Under the pieces are notes generated by a model. It was not told the DNA's origin. It made no database searches and was given only the letters and a program-made list of their open reading frames with translations. Below, one piece after another: positions 5,056 through 29,299 of a DNA stretch of 64,000 nucleotides. A program made the position numbers and the translations under genes. How positions within the stretch are numbered: position 1 is the stretch's first letter; each line of letters begins with the position of its first letter. This DNA comes from Escherichia coli (GTDB lineage Bacteria; Pseudomonadota; Gammaproteobacteria; Enterobacterales; Enterobacteriaceae), in assembly GCF_050920415.1 (NCBI RefSeq), contig NZ_CP169309.1; one strand, written 5' to 3'.

Positions 5056-6741
5056 TTGAAGAAGGTTTGGCTTAACCGTTATCCCGCGGACGTTCCGACG
5101 GAGATCAACCCTGACCGTTATCAATCTCTGGTAGATATGTTTGAGCAGTCGGTCGCGCGCTACGCCGATCAACCCGCGTTTGTGAATATGGGGGAGGTGA
5201 TGACCTTCCGCAAACTGGAAGAACGCAGTCGCGCGTTTGCCGCTTATTTGCAACAAGGGTTGGGACTGAAGAAAGGCGATCGCGTTGCGTTGATGATGCC
5301 TAATTTATTGCAATATCCGGTGGCGCTGTTTGGCATTTTGCGTGCCGGGATGATTGTCGTAAACGTTAACCCGTTGTATACCCCGCGTGAACTTGAGCAT
5401 CAGCTTAACGATAGCGGCGCATCGGCGATTGTTATCGTGTCTAACTTTGCCCACACTCTGGAAAAAGTGGTTGATAAAACCGCCGTTCAGCACGTAATTC
5501 TGACCCGTATGGGCGATCAGCTATCTACGGCAAAAGGCACGGTAGTCAATTTCGTTGTTAAATACATCAAGCGTCTGGTGCCGAAATACCATCTGCCAGA
5601 TGCCATCTCATTTCGTAGCGCCCTGCACAACGGCTACCGGATGCAGTACGTCAAACCCGAACTGGTGCCGGAAGATTTAGCTTTCCTGCAATACACCGGC
5701 GGTACCACTGGTGTGGCGAAAGGCGCGATGCTGACTCACCGCAATATGCTGGCGAACCTGGAACAGGTTAACGCGACTTATGGGCCGCTGTTGCATCCGG
5801 GCAAAGAGCTGGTGGTGACGGCGCTGCCGCTGTATCACATTTTTGCACTGACCATTAACTGCCTGCTGTTTATTGAACTGGGTGGGCAGAACTTGCTTAT
5901 CACTAACCCGCGCGATATTCCGGGGTTGGTAAAAGAGTTAGCGAAATATCCGTTTACCGCGATAACCGGCGTTAACACCTTGTTCAATGCGTTGCTGAAC
6001 AATAAAGAGTTCCAGCAGCTGGATTTCTCCAGTCTGCATCTTTCTGCAGGCGGTGGTATGCCTGTTCAACAAGTGGTGGCTGAACGTTGGGTGAAACTGA
6101 CCGGACAGTATCTGCTGGAAGGTTATGGCCTGACCGAGTGTGCGCCGCTGGTCAGCGTTAACCCGTATGATATTGATTATCATAGTGGTAGCATCGGTTT
6201 GCCGGTGCCGTCGACGGAAGCCAAACTGGTGGATGATGATGATAACGAAGTACCACCGGGTCAACCGGGTGAGCTTTGTGTCAAAGGACCGCAGGTGATG
6301 CTGGGCTACTGGCAGCGTCCGGATGCCACTGATGAAATCATCAAAAACGGTTGGCTACACACTGGCGACATTGCCGTAATGGACGAAGAAGGTTTCTTAC
6401 GCATCGTTGATCGCAAAAAAGACATGATTCTGGTTTCCGGTTTTAACGTCTATCCCAACGAGATTGAAGATGTCGTCATGCAGCATCCTGGCGTACAGGA
6501 AGTCGCGGCTGTTGGCGTACCTTCCGGCTCAAGTGGTGAAGCGGTGAAAATCTTCGTTGTGAAAAAAGATCCATCGCTTACCGAAGAGTCACTGGTGACT
6601 TTTTGCCGCCGTCAGCTCACGGGCTACAAAGTACCGAAGCTGGTGGAGTTTCGTGATGAGTTACCGAAATCTAACGTCGGAAAAATTTTGCGACGAGAAT
6701 TACGTGACGAAGCGCGCGGCAAAGTGGACAATAAAGCCTGA
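5056..6741 (+). CDS. fadD: Long-chain-fatty-acid--CoA ligase FadD (561 aa), probable TTG start
   Basis: ORF track 4990..6741; mature N-terminus [10 protein letters not shown] corresponds to TTG at 5056; AMP-binding motif [12 protein letters not shown]. Confidence 0.9.
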
Positions 6742-6810: not shown

Positions 6811-7938
6811 TTGAATTACCAAATGATTACCACGGACGATGCGCTGGCTTCTTTGTGTGAAGCTGTCCGTGCCTTTCCGGCGATAGCCCTGGATACTGAA
6901 TTTGTTCGTACGCGCACCTATTACCCGCAGCTGGGTCTAATTCAACTTTTCGATGGCGAGCATCTGGCGCTAATTGATCCTCTCGTGATCACCGACTGGT
7001 CACCGCTGAAAGCGATCCTGCGCGATCCGTCCATCACAAAATTTCTCCATGCAGGCAGTGAAGATCTGGAAGTGTTCCTCAATGTCTTTGGCGAATTACC
7101 ACAACCCCTGATTGACACGCAAATCCTTGCTGCCTTCTGCGGACGCCCGATGTCATGGGGTTTTGCTTCCATGGTGGAAGAGTATTCCGGCGTTACGCTG
7201 GACAAGAGTGAATCGCGCACCGACTGGCTGGCCAGACCGCTGACTGAACGTCAGTGTGAATACGCAGCGGCGGATGTCTGGTATCTGTTACCGATCACCG
7301 CAAAGCTTATGGTAGAAACGGAGGCCTCCGGCTGGCTACCTGCGGCGCTGGATGAATGCCGCCTGATGCAAATGCGTCGTCAGGAAGTCGTTGCGCCGGA
7401 AGATGCCTGGCGTGATATCACCAATGCCTGGCAGTTACGCACACGCCAACTGGCCTGTCTGCAACTGTTAGCCGATTGGCGACTGCGTAAGGCGCGGGAG
7501 CGCGATCTGGCGGTGAACTTTGTCGTGCGTGAAGAGCATTTGTGGTCGGTAGCGCGTTATATGCCGGGAAGTTTAGGCGAACTGGACAGCCTGGGCTTAT
7601 CCGGTAGCGAAATCCGCTTTCACGGTAAAACGCTGCTGGCGCTGGTGGAAAAAGCGCAGACATTGCCGGAAGAGGCCTTACCGCAGCCGATGCTTAACCT
7701 GATGGACATGCCGGGTTATCGTAAAGCGTTTAAAGCGATTAAGTCGCTGATTACTGACGTGAGCGAAACACACAAGATCAGCGTCGAATTGCTGGCATCG
7801 CGTCGGCAAATCAACCAGCTGCTGAACTGGCACTGGAAACTGAAACCGCAGAACAATTTGCCGGAGCTGATTTCCGGCTGGCGTGGTGAGCTGATGGCGG
7901 AAGCATTACACAATTTATTGCAGGAATATCCACAGTAA
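6811..7938 (+). CDS. rnd: Ribonuclease D (375 aa), TTG start
   Basis: ORF track; DEDDy 3'-5' exonuclease plus HRDC-like C-terminus; begins at TTG codon. Confidence 0.9.
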   Translation: MNYQMITTDDALASLCEAVRAFPAIALDTEFVRTRTYYPQLGLIQLFDGEHLALIDPLVITDWSPLKAILRDPSITKFLHAGSEDLEVFLNVFGELPQPLIDTQILAAFCGRPMSWGFASMVEEYSGVTLDKSESRTDWLARPLTERQCEYAAADVWYLLPITAKLMVETEASGWLPAALDECRLMQMRRQEVVAPEDAWRDITNAWQLRTRQLACLQLLADWRLRKARERDLAVNFVVREEHLWSVARYMPGSLGELDSLGLSGSEIRFHGKTLLALVEKAQTLPEEALPQPMLNLMDMPGYRKAFKAIKSLITDVSETHKISVELLASRRQINQLLNWHWKLKPQNNLPELISGWRGELMAEALHNLLQEYPQ

Positions 7939-7991
7939 AATCTTCCGAAGCCGGACTGGGCGCGCTCAGCGCCACATCCGGCTTCGGCAAA

Positions 7992-8957
7992 CTACAAATC
8001 CAACACCAGGCGTTTACCCTTCGCGCGTGAACAACAGATCAACATACTTTGCTGGCTGGCACGCTCTTCATCGCTAAAATACTGATCCCGATGGTCAGCT
8101 TCACCTTCCAGTATTGCCGTTTCGCAGGTTCCGCATACCCCTTCACGACATAAACATTCCACTTTCGCTGCTTTATTATTTTCAATAACCTGCAAAATAG
8201 TCATCTCTTCCGGCACCACAAACTCTTTACCGGAACGGGCAAGCACCAGCGTAAATGCATCGCCGGTTTTGTCTTCGATAGCAAATTGCTCAAAGTGCAG
8301 CGTATCGGTGACGATGTCCAGACGCCCAGCTTCACTTCTTACCGCCTCATTTAGCGCCTCGGGGCCACAGGTATAAACATGTGTGCCAGGTTCGATATCC
8401 GCCAATAATCGCGCTAATTCCAGTCGTGTTCCGGTTGATGAATGATGCAAATGGACTTTCTCGGCCTGCGGATGCTGGACTAGCTCATCACGAAATGCGC
8501 AACTTTCTGGATTTCGCGAGCAGTAATGTAACTGCCAGTCGACGTCGCTGTATTGCAACTCTGCCATGTGCGACAGGAAAGGGGTGATACCAATACCGCC
8601 CGCGATAAACAGATGCTTTCTGGCCGAGGGAATTAGCGCAAACAGGTTATTCGGCGTTGAAATCGTTAACCGATCGCCAGCCTTCACTTTCTGATGTAAA
8701 AAACGCGAACCACCGCGCGAATTTTCTTCCAGTCGAACGGCAATCTGATAACGAGACGTATCGAGTGGCGAACTCAGCAGTGAGTACGCATTGCTGTACT
8801 GGTTATCACCATCGGCCATCTGCACAATGATGTGACTTCCGCCGTTGAACGCAGGCAGCGGTTTGCCCTCAGTTGCCACCAGCGTGAAGCGTTTCACCTG
8901 TTCGGTAAGCGGTTCAACCTGGCTCACCTGTACTTCAAACATTTGGTAGTTTGACAT
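7992..8957 (-). CDS. yeaX: Carnitine monooxygenase reductase subunit (FNR-type flavin reductase with plant-type 2Fe-2S domain)
   Basis: ORF track 321 aa; C-terminal CREGVCGTCE ferredoxin motif; synteny with yeaW. Confidence 0.85.
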   Translation of the reverse strand: MSNYQMFEVQVSQVEPLTEQVKRFTLVATEGKPLPAFNGGSHIIVQMADGDNQYSNAYSLLSSPLDTSRYQIAVRLEENSRGGSRFLHQKVKAGDRLTISTPNNLFALIPSARKHLFIAGGIGITPFLSHMAELQYSDVDWQLHYCSRNPESCAFRDELVQHPQAEKVHLHHSSTGTRLELARLLADIEPGTHVYTCGPEALNEAVRSEAGRLDIVTDTLHFEQFAIEDKTGDAFTLVLARSGKEFVVPEEMTILQVIENNKAAKVECLCREGVCGTCETAILEGEADHRDQYFSDEERASQQSMLICCSRAKGKRLVLDL

Positions 8958-9012
8958 TGCTGTACTCCATCAAAAATCAGCCCGGCGGCGGAAAATACCG
9001 CCGCCGATGTCA

Positions 9013-10137
9013 TTAGTCCTTAAACACCTGCGCCAGCAGATTATGGAAATGGGCGATACCGTGTTCGGAAATTCCGCTACCGCTACTGTCGGCCATGATG
9101 CGCCCCTGACCACGATAGCCACGCGATTTCAGCCCTTTCTGTACGCTTTCAACCAGACGTAAATCTTCCGGACGGAACACGTCGCGATACCACTCAATCA
9201 GTGATTTTTGCTCGTCGGTTAACTCTTCATTGGTGAAGTAAATATCGTAGTTTTGCAGGGTAGTTTCAGAATCCACCGGGAATTCATAAATGACCGTCAT
9301 CATCCCTTTGATAGGCGTAACGTTCAGCATTGTGCACGGCCACAGCCAGAAACCGTGGAATGCCGCATCCGTACCCTCTTCAAATTTGAAAGACTGTTCG
9401 GACGGTTTGGCGAAACCGTATTGCAGCGTCCAGTTACCGTGCATGGTGTGCCAGTAACGATCAACCTGAACGGAGTCGGAGAAACCTGGATGCACCGGAC
9501 CACAGTGATAGCACTCGAGATAGTTATCGACAATGTTCTTCCAGTTGGCAGGCGTGCGGGTGGTAAAACGGGCCGCCAGTTTCAGGTCATGGACTTCCGG
9601 GCAGGCTTCCAGCACTTTCTCTCCCAGACCGGGTAACTGATCTTCTACGCTGGTGGCGTTGGGGTCCATGTTGATGAAGACGAATCCGGCATATTCTTCC
9701 AGACGCACCGGAACCAGTTGCGCTTTGTCACTATCGAAATTGGCGACGTTTTCGCAGTTACGCGCATGGGCCAGGTTGCCATCGAGTTTGAATGCCCAGG
9801 CGTGATACGGACAGGTAATTACATTTTTCGCTTTCCCTTCGCCGCTCAATAACTGATGACCACGGTGTGGACAAACGTTATAGAACGCGCGCAAAACCTT
9901 ATCACGACCGCGTACCAGCACGATGCTTTCACCAATGATCTCACGGGTCACGTAATCATTGGCATTCGCCAGTTCGCTGCTGTGAGCGACACAAATCCAG
10001 CTTTTGGCGAAGACGTTCTCTTTTTCGTGTTCAAAGGCATTCTGATCAGTATAAAAACGGGCAGGAATGGTCCACGCCTCTTGCGGGTTAGCGCAAAAAT
10101 TTTCGGGTAGTACAAAGTCAGGGCTCAGATTGCTCAT
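9013..10137 (-). CDS. yeaW: Carnitine monooxygenase oxygenase subunit (Rieske non-heme iron oxygenase), about 374 aa
   Basis: ORF track 9013..10257; start trimmed to MSNLSPDFVL; Rieske motif CPHRGH...CPYHAW. Confidence 0.85.
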   Translation of the reverse strand: MSNLSPDFVLPENFCANPQEAWTIPARFYTDQNAFEHEKENVFAKSWICVAHSSELANANDYVTREIIGESIVLVRGRDKVLRAFYNVCPHRGHQLLSGEGKAKNVITCPYHAWAFKLDGNLAHARNCENVANFDSDKAQLVPVRLEEYAGFVFINMDPNATSVEDQLPGLGEKVLEACPEVHDLKLAARFTTRTPANWKNIVDNYLECYHCGPVHPGFSDSVQVDRYWHTMHGNWTLQYGFAKPSEQSFKFEEGTDAAFHGFWLWPCTMLNVTPIKGMMTVIYEFPVDSETTLQNYDIYFTNEELTDEQKSLIEWYRDVFRPEDLRLVESVQKGLKSRGYRGQGRIMADSSGSGISEHGIAHFHNLLAQVFKD

Positions 10138-10168
10138 AGGGATACCTTTATCGTTAGGATGATGGCGT

Positions 10169-11779
10169 TCAGTTGTCGCCTTTGAATACGGTTCCAGCAG
10201 GAAGCACTGGCGCTTTTCCCGGGGCTTCAACCGGTGTCTGCGGGAGATAATGTTCAACTTGATGAGCTGGAATGTCGGCGTAATCCTGTTTCAGCCAGCG
10301 AATAAATCCGCCGACTTTCACCAGTAAAATGGCGAGGAAGGGAAGGGCAGTGAGGACGACGGTAGTTTTCATTGTTTCCAGCGAAGCACCGGTAAACAAG
10401 ATGGAAAGCGGGATCAGAGTGATCACTACGCACCAGAACAGACGCAGCCCACGGTCAGGATCGTCACCTTCCTGGAGATTACGCGTGCTGGTCGCCGCCA
10501 TGGTGTAAGCCACCGCATCCATATGCGAGGCGAGGAAGATAATCATCACGCCCAGGTATGCGGCGAGGAACAATTTACCGGCTGGCAACGACATCAGAAC
10601 TTGCTGCACAGCTGTTTCGCCGCCCAGTGTTTCCAGCACCTGTGGGACGTTGATTACGCCATTGATAAACTGATGAATGGCATAGCTTTCCATTACACCG
10701 AAGAAGAACCAGCAACCGACAGTGCTGCCGAGGATCAGTCCCCAGATAACTTCTTTAATCTTTCGACCGCGCGAAACGCGGGTGACAAACATTGCTACGC
10801 CAGGGGTGTATGAGATCCACCACAGCCAGTAGAAAACGGTCCAGTTGCGGGTAAATGAACCATCGCCAAGCGGATCGGTGAATAAGCTCATTTGCAGGAA
10901 GTTTTGCGTGGTCAGGCCGATGGCATTGATGATGCTGTTGGTAATAAATTCGGTTGGACCGACAATCAGCACCAGTAATGGCAGCAGGAATGCGCCCCAG
11001 CCAACCATTTTGCTTAGACGTTGCAAACCGTTGTTGATACCAATCCACGAGCTTAGGCAAAAAATGCCGCCGGAAAGCAGGATCACAAATGCCTGTACGG
11101 TAAAGTTATCGGGTAAACCGGTCAGCGCGGAAAGCCCACGGGTAAAGGTTGCTGCGGTGACAACAAGGGAAATGGTCAGTGCGCCGACAGTGGCGATCAG
11201 GAACATCAAATCGACCAGTTTCCCCCACGGGCCTTGCGGGCGAACGCCGGTAATAGCAGCAATAATGCCGGAAAGGCTCAGCCCTTTATTTTTCCGCACA
11301 TGAAAGTGATAAGCCATGATTAATGAGGCCAGCGTATAAGTTGCCCAGGCGCTGATGCCCCAGTGGAAGAAGGAGTAGGGAACGCTAAATTCGAGTGCCT
11401 GTTGTGAACGCGGTGCGATATTTAATCCAGGCGTTTGATAATAATAGGCCCATTCAGCAACCCCCCAATAAAGCGTAGAAGAACCTAAACCTGCACAAAT
11501 AAACATAAACAGCCAGGAGAGCGTGCTGTATTCCGGTTTTCCTTCGCCAAGACGAATATTGCCGTATTTACTGGTGGCTAAATAAATCACCAGTCCCATT
11601 GCCAGCAAAACCAATACCTGTACGGCGGAACCTAACGTACGCGTGACAAAAGTGTATATAGCGTTTGCCGCGTCGGCCGATTGTTGTGGGAAAAGGCTTA
11701 ATGCAGCTGCGATGAAAAGAATGGCCACCAGGCTGATGCTTATCAACGGCACATCTTTTTTCTTAACATTGCTCATCAT
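10169..11779 (-). CDS. yeaV: BCCT-family transporter YeaV (probable carnitine/betaine-type transporter)
   Basis: ORF track 536 aa; multi-TM BCCT-like sequence; start uncertain (reference annotation may be shorter). Confidence 0.8.
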
Positions 11780-11982
11780 GAGTCATCTCCTGGGCATAAA
11801 AGCCCGCCTCTGGCTTTTGCCAGTTGTAATTATTTGCAGGGTATGAGTTGTATGTTGTGTTTAACAAATTGATTATTTACATGTTACATAAATTAAACAA
11901 TTAAGAATACGGAAAGCCATAAAACACGAAACGGAAACAATAAAAGGTGAAATGACGCAGGTTATTTACTGCAAAGAACGAA

Positions 11983-12008
11983 TAAAAAAACCGCGTCAGT
12001 GACGCGGT
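11983..12008 (-). terminator. Rho-independent terminator downstream of dmlA
   Basis: Stem CCGCGTC/GACGCGG with U-run on the minus-strand transcript (A7 on plus strand). Confidence 0.65.
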
Positions 12009-12028
12009 TCAAATAAACTGGTTTGACC

Positions 12029-13114
12029 TTAACGCAAAATAATTTTGCAAATCGCGTCGGCAACCTGTGGCGTGGTGGCATTGCCTTTCATATCAGGTGT
12101 TTTCGGCCCGTGAGCAATCACTTCTTCAATCGCGGCCAGAATACCGTTATGCGCTTGCTGGAAACGCTCATCGCCATTGCCGAGAAAATCGAGCATCATT
12201 GCACCGGCCCAAATCGTGGCGATAGGGTTAGCAATATTTTTCCCGTAGATATCCGGCGCGGAACCGTGGACTGGCTCGAAGAGCGACGGGAAAGTGCGTT
12301 CCGGATTCAGGTTGGCGGATGGGGCAATGCCAATGGTGCCGGTGCAGGCCGGGCCAAGATCGGAAAGGATATCGCCAAACAAATTGGACGCCACTACCAC
12401 ATCGAAGCGTTCCGGCTGCATCACAAAACGTGCGCAGAGAATGTCAATATGCTGCTTGTCCCAGCGGATCTCCGGGTAATTCTCAGCCATTGCTTCCACT
12501 CGCTCATCCCAATACGGCATGCTGATGGCTAAACCGTTCGATTTAGTGGCAGAAGTTAGCGTCTTACGTGGGCGGCTTTGCGCAAGTTCAAAGGCATAGC
12601 GCAAAATACGATCGACACCACGACGAGTAAATACCGATTCCTGAATGACGACTTCATGCTCTGTACCTTCATTCACTCTACCGCCGAGCGAGGAATATTC
12701 GCCTTCGGTGTTTTCCCTGACCACGTAAAAATCGATGTCGCCAGGCTGTTTTCCCGCCAGCGGGCAGGGAACGCCAGGAAAGAGACGAACCGGGCGCAGG
12801 TTGACGTACTGGTCGAACTCACGACGAAATTTCAGCAGCGAACCCCACAACGAAATATGGTCCGGAACGGTATCCGGCCAGCCGGCGGCACCAAAATAGA
12901 TGGCGTCGAAACGGCTAAGTTGCTCATGCCAGTCGTCCGGCATCATTTTACCGTGATGGCTGTAATACTCGCAGCTCGCCCACTCCATTTGCTCAAAACT
13001 CAAGGCGAAGCCCCAGCGCTCAGCGGCAGCCTGTAACACGCGAATCCCTTCAGGAAGGACTTCTTTGCCAATCCCGTCTCCCGGGATCGCAGCAATACGC
13101 ATCGTTTTCATCAT
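12029..13114 (-). CDS. dmlA: D-malate dehydrogenase (decarboxylating), isocitrate/isopropylmalate dehydrogenase family
   Basis: ORF track 361 aa; IDH/IPMDH family sequence; divergent from LysR gene. Confidence 0.9.
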   Translation of the reverse strand: MMKTMRIAAIPGDGIGKEVLPEGIRVLQAAAERWGFALSFEQMEWASCEYYSHHGKMMPDDWHEQLSRFDAIYFGAAGWPDTVPDHISLWGSLLKFRREFDQYVNLRPVRLFPGVPCPLAGKQPGDIDFYVVRENTEGEYSSLGGRVNEGTEHEVVIQESVFTRRGVDRILRYAFELAQSRPRKTLTSATKSNGLAISMPYWDERVEAMAENYPEIRWDKQHIDILCARFVMQPERFDVVVASNLFGDILSDLGPACTGTIGIAPSANLNPERTFPSLFEPVHGSAPDIYGKNIANPIATIWAGAMMLDFLGNGDERFQQAHNGILAAIEEVIAHGPKTPDMKGNATTPQVADAICKIILR

Positions 13115-13216
13115 TGGGTTCTCACTTCCTGACCATCAAAATTGACAACCTCACCATCCTATAATTGACTGAAAAGGAATTAATCCCCGCAACTGGTGAA
13201 ACATAAAACACGAATC

Positions 13217-14140
13217 ATGAATAATTTACCGCTGCTGAACGATTTGCGCGTCTTTATGCTGGTGGCTCGCCGGGCTGGTTTTGCCGCTGTGGCGGAAGAA
13301 TTGGGTGTTTCACCGGCTTTTGTCAGCAAACGCATTGCCTTGCTGGAACAAACGCTAAATGTGGTGTTGTTACACCGTACCACCCGCCGCGTCACCATTA
13401 CCGAAGAAGGAGAGCGGATTTATGAATGGGCGCAGCGGATTTTGCAGGATGTCGGCCAGATGATGGACGAACTTTCTGACGTGCGTCAGGTGCCGCAGGG
13501 GATGCTGCGTATTATCAGCAGCTTTGGTTTTGGACGACAGGTAGTGGCTCCGGCGTTATCAGCGCTGGCGAAAGCGTATCCGCAACTGGAATTACGTTTT
13601 GATGTGGAAGACCGGTTGGTCGATTTGGTCAATGAAGGTGTCGATCTCGACATTCGCATTGGCGATGACATCGCCCCTAATTTAATCGCCCGCAAACTGG
13701 CGACCAATTACCGTATTCTCTGCGCATCGCCGGAATTTATTGCGCAATATGGCACGCCGAAACATTTAACCGACCTTTCTGCATTGCCGTGCCTGGTCAT
13801 TAAAGAGCGCGATCATCCTTTTGGTATCTGGCAATTACGCAATAAAGAAGGCCACCATGCGATTAAAGTCACCGGCCCGCTGTCGTCTAATCATGGAGAA
13901 ATTGTTCATCAGTGGTGTCTTGATGGTCAGGGGATTGCGCTACGCTCCTGGTGGGATGTCAGCGAAAATATTGCCAGTGGTCATTTAGTGCAAGTGCTAC
14001 CGGAGTATTACCAGCCAGCAAATGTCTGGGCCGTTTATGTTTCAAGGCTGGCGACGTCAGCGAAAGTGCGGATAACGGTAGAATTTTTACGCCAGTATTT
14101 TGCCGAGCACTACCCGAATTTTTCACTGGAGCATGCCTGA
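13217..14140 (+). CDS. dmlR: LysR-type transcriptional regulator DmlR (about 307 aa)
   Basis: ORF track 13196..14140; start trimmed to MNNLPLLNDL; N-terminal HTH. Confidence 0.85.
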   Translation: MNNLPLLNDLRVFMLVARRAGFAAVAEELGVSPAFVSKRIALLEQTLNVVLLHRTTRRVTITEEGERIYEWAQRILQDVGQMMDELSDVRQVPQGMLRIISSFGFGRQVVAPALSALAKAYPQLELRFDVEDRLVDLVNEGVDLDIRIGDDIAPNLIARKLATNYRILCASPEFIAQYGTPKHLTDLSALPCLVIKERDHPFGIWQLRNKEGHHAIKVTGPLSSNHGEIVHQWCLDGQGIALRSWWDVSENIASGHLVQVLPEYYQPANVWAVYVSRLATSAKVRITVEFLRQYFAEHYPNFSLEHA

Positions 14141-14197
14141 TTAATGATTCAATTATCGGGTTGATATCGGGTTAAAACCTGATTTTCTCCTTTCTAA

Positions 14198-14905
<708 letters not shown>

Positions 14906-28552: not shown

Positions 28553-29299
28553 GTGACCAAACTCAAACTTCTGGCACTTGGAGTGCTTATCGCAACGTCT
28601 GCAGGCGTAGCGCACGCTGAAGGTAAATTTTCCCTGGGCGCAGGCGTAGGTGTCGTTGAACACCCATATAAAGATTACGATACCGATGTTTACCCAGTAC
28701 CGGTAATCAACTATGAAGGCGATAACTTCTGGTTCCGTGGCTTAGGTGGTGGTTACTACCTGTGGAATGACGCAACGGATAAACTTTCAATTACCGCTTA
28801 CTGGTCGCCGCTTTACTTCAAAGCTAAAGACAGTGGCGATCACCAAATGCGTCACCTGGATGACCGTAAGAGCACCATGATGGCTGGTCTGTCTTATGCT
28901 CACTTTACCCAGTACGGTTACCTGCGTACCACCCTGGCTGGCGATACCCTGGATAACAGCAACGGCATCGTCTGGGATATGGCCTGGTTGTATCGTTACA
29001 CCAACGGTGGCCTGACCGTGACTCCGGGTATTGGTGTGCAGTGGAACAGCGAAAACCAGAACGAATACTATTATGGCGTATCGCGCAAAGAGTCTGCGCG
29101 CAGCGGTCTGCGTGGCTATAACCCGAACGACAGCTGGAGCCCTTACCTGGAGCTAAGTGCCAGCTACAACTTCCTCGGTGACTGGAGTGTTTACGGTACC
29201 GCGCGCTACACCCGTCTGTCTGATGAAGTTACTGACAGCCCAATGGTGGATAAATCCTGGACTGGCCTGATTTCTACCGGGATCACCTACAAATTCTGA
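28553..29299 (+). CDS. mipA: MltA-interacting outer-membrane protein MipA, GTG start
   Basis: ORF track 248 aa; signal peptide, beta-barrel-like sequence ending in aromatic residue. Confidence 0.9.
   Translation: MTKLKLLALGVLIATSAGVAHAEGKFSLGAGVGVVEHPYKDYDTDVYPVPVINYEGDNFWFRGLGGGYYLWNDATDKLSITAYWSPLYFKAKDSGDHQMRHLDDRKSTMMAGLSYAHFTQYGYLRTTLAGDTLDNSNGIVWDMAWLYRYTNGGLTVTPGIGVQWNSENQNEYYYGVSRKESARSGLRGYNPNDSWSPYLELSASYNFLGDWSVYGTARYTRLSDEVTDSPMVDKSWTGLISTGITYKF

Follow-up and report, generated by a model that had tools for sequence, protein, structure and literature searches.

Positions 7992-14140 of the stretch of DNA analysed (64,000 nucleotides; hereafter the window) are the chromosomal Escherichia coli yeaX-yeaW-yeaV/dmlA/dmlR locus, which is very probably the CntAB carnitine-degradation cluster in its enterobacterial form, without the aldehyde-dehydrogenase gene. 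The locus and its carnitine-cleaving, trimethylamine (TMA)-releasing role are ordinary biology published before, and an earlier note on this DNA was right to label it known biology, as the E. coli YeaW/YeaX carnitine monooxygenase has already been described. The stretch matched an E. coli chromosome at 100% identity, with all five genes named there, and gene calls were made from the ORF list and from the annotation that RefSeq gives for an identical record, NZ_CP169399.1. Four genes lie on the minus strand, namely yeaX (cntB; 7992..8957, 321 aa) and yeaW (cntA; 9013..10137, 374 aa) for the reductase and Rieske-type oxygenase subunits of carnitine monooxygenase, yeaV (10169..11779, 536 aa) for a full-length BCCT-family transporter and dmlA (yeaU; 12029..13114, 361 aa) for the decarboxylating D-malate/3-isopropylmalate/tartrate dehydrogenase. 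The divergent dmlR (yeaT; 13217..14140, plus strand) encodes the LysR-type activator of dmlA; its outer limit of 14140 agrees with that given previously, and a GTG at 13196 is the start of the maximal ORF. The mechanical ORF of yeaW extends to a TTG at 10257, and the ATG at 10137 is backed by RefSeq and the CntA alignment. Pfam, NCBIfam and RefSeq bore out the claim that transporter, oxygenase and reductase are co-directional, with dmlA on the same strand too. The stretch has at least a partial match in 5,425 of 5,426 complete E. coli genomes, and the five genes are therefore real and conserved rather than chance ORFs. In E. coli K-12 (b1799-b1803) the flanks rnd and leuE, the gene order and the orientation are all as in the window. 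The locus is not an island in the sense of a mobile element, as GC content is normal, neither IS nor tRNA was found in 7992-14140 and the region is collinear in a relative at ~80% DNA identity.

YeaW carries the Pfam domains Rieske and Ring_hydroxyl_A and matched the Acinetobacter baumannii CntA (PDB 6y8j) with E=5e-197 and an identity of 72.8%; its identity to the CntA of the A. baumannii carnitine operon is 73.8%. The Rieske ligands C89/H91/C109/H112, the mononuclear iron ligands H211/H216/D325 with the bridging E208, the Cys pair C209/C212 and all pocket residues (Y206, Y228, F260, N272, Y297, Y317 and F321) were kept; every ligand is thus conserved at the two iron sites where low identity had been envisaged as evidence against a CntA. 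The catalytic and pocket residues, taken from PMC7948474 and PMC10952381, are conserved in YeaW and 114 homologues. YeaW was 99.5% identical to its K-12 counterpart, with two differences, E173 and V215 (Ala at both in K-12); Val215 occurs in eight of 115 aligned sequences including the window's own, that is in 7 of the 114 orthologues, including Achromobacter. The glycine betaine monooxygenase GbcA/BmoA and the stachydrine demethylase Stc2, group V Rieske oxygenases for quaternary amines, share with YeaW the Rieske and catalytic domains, a bridging Glu and two paired Cys residues close to the iron (PMC7948474, PMC10952381). However, YeaW scored only 153 bits against the GbcA equivalog cutoff of 670, and Stc2-type structures matched at ~1e-30, far more weakly than CntA, and it is therefore a CntA rather than a GbcA or Stc2. 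E. coli YeaW/YeaX acts biochemically as a carnitine monooxygenase in vitro, where it is highly active and interchangeable with CntA/CntB (PMC9508527), and carnitine and gamma-butyrobetaine are about equal substrates for CntA/YeaW orthologues (PMC9508527; PMC5433236).

Judging from its sequence, YeaX is a reductase of the phthalate-dioxygenase-reductase type, with FMN, NADH and a plant-type [2Fe-2S] cluster. It contains the Pfam domains Fer2, NAD_binding_1, FAD_binding_6 and DmmA-like_N, and in the PDB it best matches the reductase domains found in self-sufficient cytochrome P450 monooxygenases (6kbh, 3.6e-62; 6laa, 2.1e-59), with phthalate dioxygenase reductase next (2pia, 6.9e-58). YeaX has the cluster motif C270-x4-C-x2-C...C, the sequence GGIGITP at 120 and the docking residues R271, K313 and D320, whose function was tested in PMC9508527; its identity is 95.7% to K-12 YeaX and 50.8% to A. 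baumannii CntB. The comparison with characterized CntA and CntB that had been proposed as a check therefore upholds the equivalence to CntAB, through the identities of YeaW (72.8% to 6y8j) and YeaX, the YeaX motifs and docking residues, and the biochemistry of PMC9508527. The 55 bp spacer between yeaW and yeaX holds a GC-rich hairpin (8982..9007, minus strand) with a 10 bp stem of 9 G-C pairs followed by GCUGAUUUUU, which is a terminator-like match (spacer MFE -28.4 kcal/mol, z=-5.0, 0 of 200 shuffles equally stable). It is found in K-12 also, and in Klebsiella a comparable hairpin lies in the msadh-cntB spacer, with the tail GATTTTTGATGGAGT.CAGC common to the E. coli spacer. This hairpin is possibly a partial terminator or an mRNA-stability element, and would tune the ratio of reductase to oxygenase.

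YeaV is covered by PF02028 over residues 14-499 and matched the equivalog NF007412 over 1-536 of 536 positions (1028 bits against a cutoff of 647). Its nearest structures are DddT and CaiT, and as their alignment begins at residue 16, TM1 (residues 11-30 by hydropathy, with TM2 at 49-69) is part of the BCCT fold. Sharing 54.5% identity with the carnitine transporter characterised in A. baumannii, 86.7% with the Klebsiella and 77.6% with the Serratia protein, YeaV is presumed to be a carnitine/gamma-butyrobetaine importer and, being intact in the window strain, would import the quaternary amine. An AT-rich region upstream of yeaV (11780..11975, minus strand) holds blocks conserved across genera, such as AACCTGCG..ATTCACCTTTTATTGTTTCCGTTTCGTGTTTTAT and CAATTGTTTAATT.ATGTAA in the alignment of E. 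coli, L008, Klebsiella and Serratia, and an RBS (AGGAGA) lies 7 nt ahead of the ATG. A canonical sigma-70 match was sought in this region and none was found, which fits an activator-dependent promoter. The region is presumably the regulated promoter of yeaVWX, from which the three genes would be transcribed downstream of the dmlA terminator. In the intact-allele strain O157:H7 Sakai, yeaV rises ~2-fold from log to late log phase and yeaW ~2-fold from late log to early stationary phase (PMC2241611).

Among the 5,426 complete E. coli genomes surveyed, the locus takes three forms: intact, as in the window (2,930; 54%), with a 224-bp deletion (1,438; 26.5%) and almost completely deleted (1,044; 19%). 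The 224-bp segment (11652..11875, minus strand) is absent from K-12, as seen in an alignment with that strain, and from BL21. It takes in 96 bp of DNA 5' of yeaV with the RBS, plus the ATG and 42 full codons at the start of the gene (128 coding bases), and was found in 2,930 genomes. The K-12-type deletion junction was present in 1,438, including K-12 and BL21 (1,410 at at least 99% identity), and dmlA and dmlR are intact in these genomes. In K-12 the upstream DNA, RBS, ATG and TM1 of the gene are gone, and the annotation gives a 481-aa ORF from a TTG inside TM2, whereas the window gene encodes the full 536 aa; the two proteins are 99.2% identical across the common 481 residues. In BL21, yeaV is annotated as a pseudogene with its N-terminus missing. 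The B2-type deletion takes out dmlA/dmlR and yeaVWX together, and single strains carry IS insertions or a dmlA::yeaW fusion. As ~46% of the genomes carry a damaged or deleted locus, it is dispensable. The dN/dS values against K-12 were 0.014-0.10 for the five genes, like those of flanking housekeeping genes; the relative at ~80% DNA identity has the same five-gene cluster without msadh, with proteins 77-92% identical, and across genus-level divergence the five proteins are conserved at the level of Rnd.

The adjoining D-malate dehydrogenase and LysR regulator reported earlier were confirmed. DmlA contains PF00180 (Iso_dh), scored 562 bits against the TIGR02089 cutoff of 470, matched tartrate dehydrogenase (PDB 3flk) at 3.7e-194 and is 99.7% identical to K-12 DmlA and 71.6% to the A. 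baumannii MDH, which turns D-malate into pyruvate (PMC11353897). DmlR, named from RefSeq annotation, has HTH_1 and LysR_substrate domains and is 98.4% identical to K-12 DmlR and 45.8% to A. baumannii CarR, likewise divergently placed. By sequence comparison the two are orthologous to the D-malate dehydrogenase and the LysR regulator that the carnitine operon of Acinetobacter encodes. In the divergent dmlR-dmlA promoter region, the conserved box GTCAATTATAGGAT (13156..13169, minus strand) lies in a TAATT-N11-AATTA dyad of the LysR T-N11-A type; it is invariant in E. coli, L008, Klebsiella and Serratia, partly retained in A. baumannii in the alignment, and a candidate DmlR binding site. The CntA match, the conserved residues, the in vitro activity of YeaW/YeaX and the orthology of DmlA and DmlR support the earlier reading, which was already published.

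The A. baumannii operon (carR, mdh, bcct/aci01347, hyd, cntA, msadh, cntB) shares with E. coli five core genes, their relative order, the divergent LysR regulator and the catalytic residues, but E. coli is without hyd (acylcarnitine hydrolase) and msadh (malic semialdehyde dehydrogenase). The order LysR/Iso_dh, BCCT, CntA, (Aldedh), CntB is common to Acinetobacter, Klebsiella and Serratia, in all of which msadh lies between cntA and cntB. None of the 5,426 E. coli genomes was found to have msadh; gabD came closest (68% DNA identity), and this succinate-semialdehyde dehydrogenase gene is the nearest E. coli paralogue. In the proposed pathway, YeaW uses its Rieske cluster and mononuclear iron for O2 activation and hydroxylates L-carnitine or gamma-butyrobetaine at the position adjacent to the nitrogen, after which the C-N bond breaks to yield trimethylamine and malic semialdehyde (succinic semialdehyde from gamma-butyrobetaine). 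The aldehyde may be oxidised to D-malate by an enzyme encoded elsewhere, GabD or Sad for example; DmlA, with dmlA activated by DmlR, converts D-malate to pyruvate by oxidative decarboxylation. The YeaW, DmlA and DmlR steps have been shown, or are established for near-identical proteins. The link to dmlA/dmlR through malate semialdehyde and malate suggested in the earlier note agrees with the A. baumannii pathway, reconstituted from L-carnitine through malic semialdehyde and D-malate to pyruvate and CO2 (PMC11353897), but the msadh step has no gene here. A. baumannii grows on carnitine, whereas K-12, B and BL21 reportedly do not (PMC11353897), and carnitine catabolism in E. coli cells is therefore only putative. 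No carnitine monooxygenase activity could be detected in extract of BL21, nor did expression data point to substantial transcription of cntA (PMC11353897). Of the non-growing strains, K-12 and BL21 bear the broken yeaV allele.

It is possible, though not probable, that the locus comprises two separate modules, with dmlR-dmlA serving D-malate (tartrate, isopropylmalate) and yeaVWX, an independent operon, trimming intracellular quaternary-amine pools for osmolyte homeostasis or detoxification and passing no carbon to DmlA; on this view the two modules lie side by side as a leftover of an ancestral operon. An intrinsic terminator immediately 3' of dmlA (11988..12010, minus strand; 10-bp stem, then U7; MFE -16.9 kcal/mol, z=-3.85), kept in K-12 and L008, is strong, so that dmlA and yeaVWX need not be co-expressed. 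The absence of msadh, the failure of laboratory strains to grow on carnitine, the suggestion that clusters without msadh/mdh adjust carnitine levels (PMC11353897) and the 1,438 genomes with a broken yeaV beside intact dmlA and dmlR point the same way. However, the LysR-Iso_dh-BCCT-CntA-CntB linkage is kept across genera and in the msadh-less relative, both parts are lost together in the B2-type deletion, and the carnitine route leads stereospecifically to D-malate, on which DmlA acts. We consider it unlikely that the physiological substrate is not carnitine but gamma-butyrobetaine, the end product of the anaerobic Cai pathway of E. coli, whose cleavage to TMA and succinic semialdehyde, the native substrate of GabD/Sad, would make msadh unnecessary and explain its loss. 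The near-equal use of both substrates by CntA/YeaW orthologues (PMC9508527, PMC5433236), the kinship of msadh with gabD and an old msadh loss with the remaining genes still under purifying selection favour this reading, but it leaves the continued dmlA/dmlR linkage unexplained, and the YeaW pocket residues are the same as in carnitine-using CntA, so no specificity shift is visible in the sequence. A decaying relic without current function in E. coli, to which the missing msadh and hydrolase genes, the 5' deletion of yeaV in 26.5% and near-total deletion in 19% of genomes, the IS insertions and dmlA::yeaW fusion and the lack of substantial cntA transcription in published data would point, is very unlikely given dN/dS values on par with housekeeping neighbours, intact reading frames in 54% of genomes, Rnd-like conservation of the five proteins and a highly active enzyme in vitro (PMC9508527).

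For the CntAB-type carnitine cluster of E. coli, the closest complete versions are those of Klebsiella and Serratia, in which the CntA proteins are 90% and 80% identical to YeaW and the BCCT transporters have 535 and 536 aa. Both keep the blocks upstream of yeaV and a hairpin and GATTTTTGATGGAGT spacer ahead of cntB, and encode a 482-aa aldehyde dehydrogenase 62-63% identical to the A. baumannii MSA-DH. Their chromosomal sites differ from that in E. coli, the Klebsiella cluster adjoining puu genes and the Serratia cluster the glyceraldehyde-3-phosphate dehydrogenase (Gp_dh), pgk and fba genes.

The locus at 7992-14140 of the window comprises yeaX (7992-8957), yeaW (9013-10137), yeaV (10169-11779) and dmlA (12029-13114) on the minus strand and dmlR (13217-14140) on the plus strand, and the RefSeq annotation places it between rnd and leuE. 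Gene limits were taken from the ORF list together with the RefSeq annotation, which agree. In the mechanical ORF list yeaW extends as far as the TTG at 10257, with an overlap into yeaV; the true start is the ATG at 10137, on the basis of RefSeq and the alignment with CntA. Pfam and NCBIfam assigned the products to a BCCT transporter, a Rieske/Ring_hydroxyl_A oxygenase, an FMN/NADH/[2Fe-2S] reductase, an isocitrate/isopropylmalate-family dehydrogenase and a LysR regulator. The ORFs, RefSeq and these domains thereby confirm, with coordinates to the base, the co-directional transporter, oxygenase and reductase genes recognized in the earlier note, and likewise its adjoining D-malate dehydrogenase gene dmlA and LysR regulator gene dmlR. 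DmlA matched the tartrate-dehydrogenase equivalog TIGR02089 (561.9 bits, above the cutoff of 470.4) and PDB 3flk (3.7e-194), and is 99.7% identical to K-12 DmlA.

The window belongs to the ordinary core chromosome of E. coli. Some or all of the 7992-14140 stretch was matched in 5,425 of the 5,426 complete E. coli genomes, and the whole of it is 100% identical in E. coli MFDS1022581 (NZ_CP169399.1). The term island used in the earlier note holds for a linked gene set and fails for a mobile island, which was rejected on account of a GC content of 0.46-0.53 like that of the flanks, the lack of annotated mobility genes and collinearity with L008, the locus of an enterobacterial relative. Across the locus, identity of ≥99% was reached by only 2 of the 5,426 genomes, and the strain therefore comes from a sparsely sampled E. 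coli lineage. For the same reason an unusually divergent locus was also considered; it was rejected, since the flanking genes are equally far from K-12 (dS 0.08-0.16), which points to a lineage effect rather than a locus-specific one. Divergence of the window from K-12 is uniformly about 3-4% at the DNA level over 13 genes, with dS values of 0.08-0.20 except for yeaO (0.026). Elsewhere in the window, GC dips to 0.42-0.43 over yoaH, yoaC and yoaB (1-1500), and mipA (about 28583-29298) is annotated as a frameshifted pseudogene in this strain.

As the earlier note equated YeaW and YeaX with the carnitine monooxygenase CntAB and proposed a comparison with characterized sequences, the two proteins were aligned with CntA and CntB. 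YeaW is 72.8% identical to the crystal sequence of Acinetobacter baumannii CntA (PDB 6y8j, E=5e-197). The CntA Rieske ligands, iron triad, Cys206/Cys209 pair and pocket residues have been defined previously (PMC7948474, PMC10952381), and the Rieske and iron ligands proved to be conserved rather than of low identity. The Rieske motif C-x-H-x17-C-x2-H is formed by C89, H91, C109 and H112 (C86, H88, C106 and H109 in CntA), and the iron triad by H211, H216 and D325 (H208, H213 and D323) with the bridging E208 (E205), a glutamate in place of the usual aspartate that is a described signature (PMC5433236). None of these varied among the 115 aligned sequences, the window YeaW and 114 homologues. The pocket residues Y206, Y228, F260, N272, Y297, Y317 and F321 (Y203, Y225, F258, N270, Y295, Y315 and F319 in CntA) and the C209/C212 pair are likewise kept, and overall the catalytic and pocket residues are invariant or nearly so across the 114 homologues. 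YeaW of the window is thus identified by its sequence as the oxygenase subunit of carnitine monooxygenase. It differs from K-12 YeaW at two positions only, one of them V215, which adjoins the iron ligand H216. We rejected inactivation by V215, which is unlikely to matter because valine occurs naturally at this site in 7 of 114 aligned orthologues, Achromobacter included.

YeaX, encoded 55 bp downstream of yeaW on the same strand as the syntenic cntB-type reductase gene, is a class IA reductase of the phthalate-dioxygenase-reductase type, 50.8% identical to CntB and aligned over residues 9-321 with PDB 2pia (6.9e-58). Its flavin and NADH domains (Pfam) precede a plant-type [2Fe-2S] domain at the C-terminus, with C-x4-C-x2-C...C at 270, and it has a GGIGITP nucleotide-binding motif at 120. 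R271, K313 and D320, which are important by mutagenesis (PMC9508527), are all there. Purified YeaW and YeaX of E. coli KO11FL act as a carnitine monooxygenase, with TMA formed in dependence on carnitine or gamma-butyrobetaine, and are interchangeable with CntA and CntB (PMC9508527), in keeping with the equivalence proposed in the earlier note. The rate of evolution is clearly higher for yeaX than for its partners, with 14 amino acid differences from K-12 and a dN/dS of 0.10 against 0.014 for yeaW, and Klebsiella YeaX is 71% identical as compared with 90% for YeaW.

In A. baumannii, L-carnitine is cleaved to TMA and malic semialdehyde, which is converted to D-malate by malic semialdehyde dehydrogenase (MSA-DH, gene msadh) and then to pyruvate and CO2 by a decarboxylating malate dehydrogenase (MDH), the pathway being controlled by a LysR regulator (PMC11353897). 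This route through malic semialdehyde and D-malate agrees with the link between dmlA/dmlR and carnitine breakdown drawn in the earlier note. DmlA is 71.6% identical to the A. baumannii MDH and DmlR 45.8% to the regulator, near the figures of PMC11353897 itself. Of carnitine breakdown as a whole, only the first step has been demonstrated in E. coli. The A. baumannii locus (L005) is ordered LysR / Iso_dh, BCCT, hydrolase, CntA, Aldedh, CntB, and those of Klebsiella (L006) and Serratia (L007) are ordered LysR / Iso_dh, BCCT (535 and 536 aa), CntA, Aldedh (482 aa), CntB. The LysR regulator, D-malate dehydrogenase, BCCT transporter, cntA and cntB are all linked in the window too, and since their order recurs in all three genera, the adjacency of dmlA/dmlR is no coincidence but a linkage that is ancestral and shared across genera.

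Unlike these clusters, that of E. coli has no msadh between cntA and cntB. The 55-bp yeaW-yeaX spacer contains a 10-bp GC hairpin with the tail GATTTTTGATGGAGTACAGCA; its homologue in Klebsiella is the spacer between msadh and cntB, where a hairpin is followed by GATTTTTTGATGGAGTTCAGCG, and therefore the aldehyde-dehydrogenase gene has been cleanly removed. A Klebsiella msadh query detected no orthologue in the 5,426 E. coli genomes, the sole match being gabD at 68% DNA identity. The loss is old: L008, whose collinearity with the window extends from dmlR to yoaH (78-81% DNA identity), has the same msadh-less five-gene cluster; its cluster proteins are 77-92% identical to those of the window, with 89% for Rnd in comparison. 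Against K-12, the dN/dS values of the cluster (yeaW 0.014, dmlA 0.015, yeaV 0.036, dmlR 0.046, yeaX 0.10) resemble those of neighbouring housekeeping genes. Selection has maintained the shortened cluster, which speaks against its being a mere relic and implies one of two explanations. The aldehyde released by YeaW may be handled by another enzyme, GabD or Sad; alternatively, gamma-butyrobetaine would be an important substrate, with succinic semialdehyde as the product.

Gene names, enzyme function, pathway logic and the absence of msadh and hyd have all been published, which bears out the view of the earlier note that the biology is known rather than novel. The locus is of textbook level and in itself offers no novelty; only the three-allele structure, with a broken transporter/promoter allele in K-12 and BL21 as against the intact allele of the window, is mildly new, and this difference is a practical by-product. 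Compared with K-12 MG1655, the window has 224 extra bases at 11652-11875 (junction at 7151/7152 of the MG1655 locus L002), which comprise 96 bp 5' of yeaV, its ribosome-binding site and ATG, and 128 bases at the start of the coding region (42 full codons). K-12 YeaV, a 'putative transporter' of 481 aa in the curated annotation, is annotated from a TTG inside TM2 and lacks TM1, and BL21 yeaV is flagged by PGAP as a pseudogene without its N-terminus. In the window, YeaV scores 1028 bits against the equivalog NF007412 (cutoff 647) over profile positions 1-536 of 536, has hydrophobic segments at residues 11-30 and 49-69 (TM1 and TM2), and aligns from residue 16 to the DddT and CaiT structures and over its whole length to the Klebsiella and Serratia orthologues. 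The full model length, the full-length relatives and the structural match from residue 16 therefore indicate that the 536-aa form is ancestral and complete. By analogy with the A. baumannii carnitine transporter, to which it is 54.5% identical (PMC6562126), YeaV is presumed to transport carnitine/gamma-butyrobetaine. In a metabolomics study of knockout and overexpression mutants, yeaV overexpression caused mild carnitine depletion (PMC10971958). No mention of the truncation was found in the literature searched. The allele overexpressed in that study was presumably the truncated K-12 form.

The 224-bp segment is present in 2,930 (54%) of the 5,426 complete E. coli genomes, the window, O157:H7 and 042 among them. 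Another 1,438, including K-12 MG1655, DH1, JM109 and BL21, have the K-12 deletion junction, and as 1,410 of these junctions are ≥99% identical they represent one deletion event. An LF82-type junction was found in 1,044 genomes, LF82 and the type strain ATCC 11775 among them. These lack nearly the entire cluster, and the remnant between rnd and leuE (5950-6323 of the LF82 locus L003) retains no more of yeaX than about 20 bp, with 156 bp of dmlA and 168 bp of dmlR. Absence of the cluster, seen in about 19% of E. coli genomes, thus reflects deletions that leave gene fragments behind. In single strains, IS3-family or IS5/ISKpn26 elements have inserted into the cluster (H13, H67). An E. coli protein of 472 aa (P0014) combines Iso_dh, Rieske and Ring_hydroxyl_A domains, and YeaW is 99% identical over 80% of it; it looks like a dmlA::yeaW fusion arising through another deletion that removed yeaV in some E. 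coli.

The deletion in K-12 probably also takes out the promoter core of yeaVWX. Between dmlA and yeaV lie 249 bp of AT-rich DNA with an AGGAGA ribosome-binding site, and its upstream blocks are conserved in alignment from E. coli to Klebsiella and partly in Serratia. Scanning with the sigma-70 consensus revealed no promoter ahead of yeaV or dmlA, and matches overall were fewer than in shuffles. On conservation alone we infer a separate, putatively activator-dependent yeaVWX promoter. A CRP SELEX list includes yeaV, and a search by eye for a CRP site gave no convincing match. An Rfam scan of 7800-14400 at E≤0.1 returned no RNA family, and therefore no riboswitch or known sRNA accounts for the conserved upstream DNA. 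In O157:H7 Sakai, which has the intact allele, yeaV and yeaW rise about 2-fold at growth-phase transitions, yeaV from log to late log and yeaW from late log to early stationary phase (PMC2241611).

The K-12, B and BL21 strains did not grow on carnitine, BL21 was without detectable activity and there was no sign of substantial cntA transcription (PMC11353897). K-12 and BL21, the two of these three strains that were checked, both carry the 224-bp yeaV deletion, and the negative evidence on carnitine therefore loses its force. A listing of E. coli K12 as carnitine-positive (PMC6200775) was set aside, as it goes back, for Rath 2017, to K12 DNA serving as a qPCR standard and does not represent a physiological test. 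It is conceivable, if rather unlikely, that the E. coli negatives partly reflect one lineage lesion, and that intact strains import carnitine/gamma-butyrobetaine and release TMA aerobically with GabD/Sad replacing msadh. An intact yeaV is no proof of carnitine catabolism, since msadh is missing all the same. Among the cntA amplicon sequences from human stool, 98.1% lay closest to those of E. coli (PMC5433236). If intact strains do behave in this way, gut-metagenome cntA counts would need to be split by yeaV allele. The TMA that gut bacteria form from carnitine gives rise to TMAO, a marker of cardiovascular risk. As K-12 and BL21 carry a damaged transporter/promoter allele, surveys of cntA gene presence, transporter studies with K-12 clones and the verdict that carnitine is unusable for E. 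coli need to be interpreted in the light of the allele.

The remaining transcription signals lie around dmlA and ahead of yeaX. The dmlR-dmlA spacer holds a TAATT-N11-AATTA dyad, a predicted site of typical LysR type, and the right half of the dyad, GTCAATTATAGGAT, does not vary among the enterobacteria compared and is recognizable in Acinetobacter. The 3' end of dmlA has a strong intrinsic terminator at 11988-12010, with a 10-bp stem and U7 (z=-3.85). The Klebsiella dmlA-bcct spacer (7903-8356 of L006) is about 200 bp longer than that of E. coli and has a GC-rich REP-like insert after dmlA. The spacer ahead of yeaX (8958-9012) folds into a hairpin of high stability (-28.4 kcal/mol, z=-5), which may be an internal attenuator or an mRNA-processing/stability element that sets the reductase:oxygenase ratio. 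Klebsiella has a structurally analogous hairpin with a U-run before cntB (12593-12649 of L006), and a hairpin is also present in Serratia.
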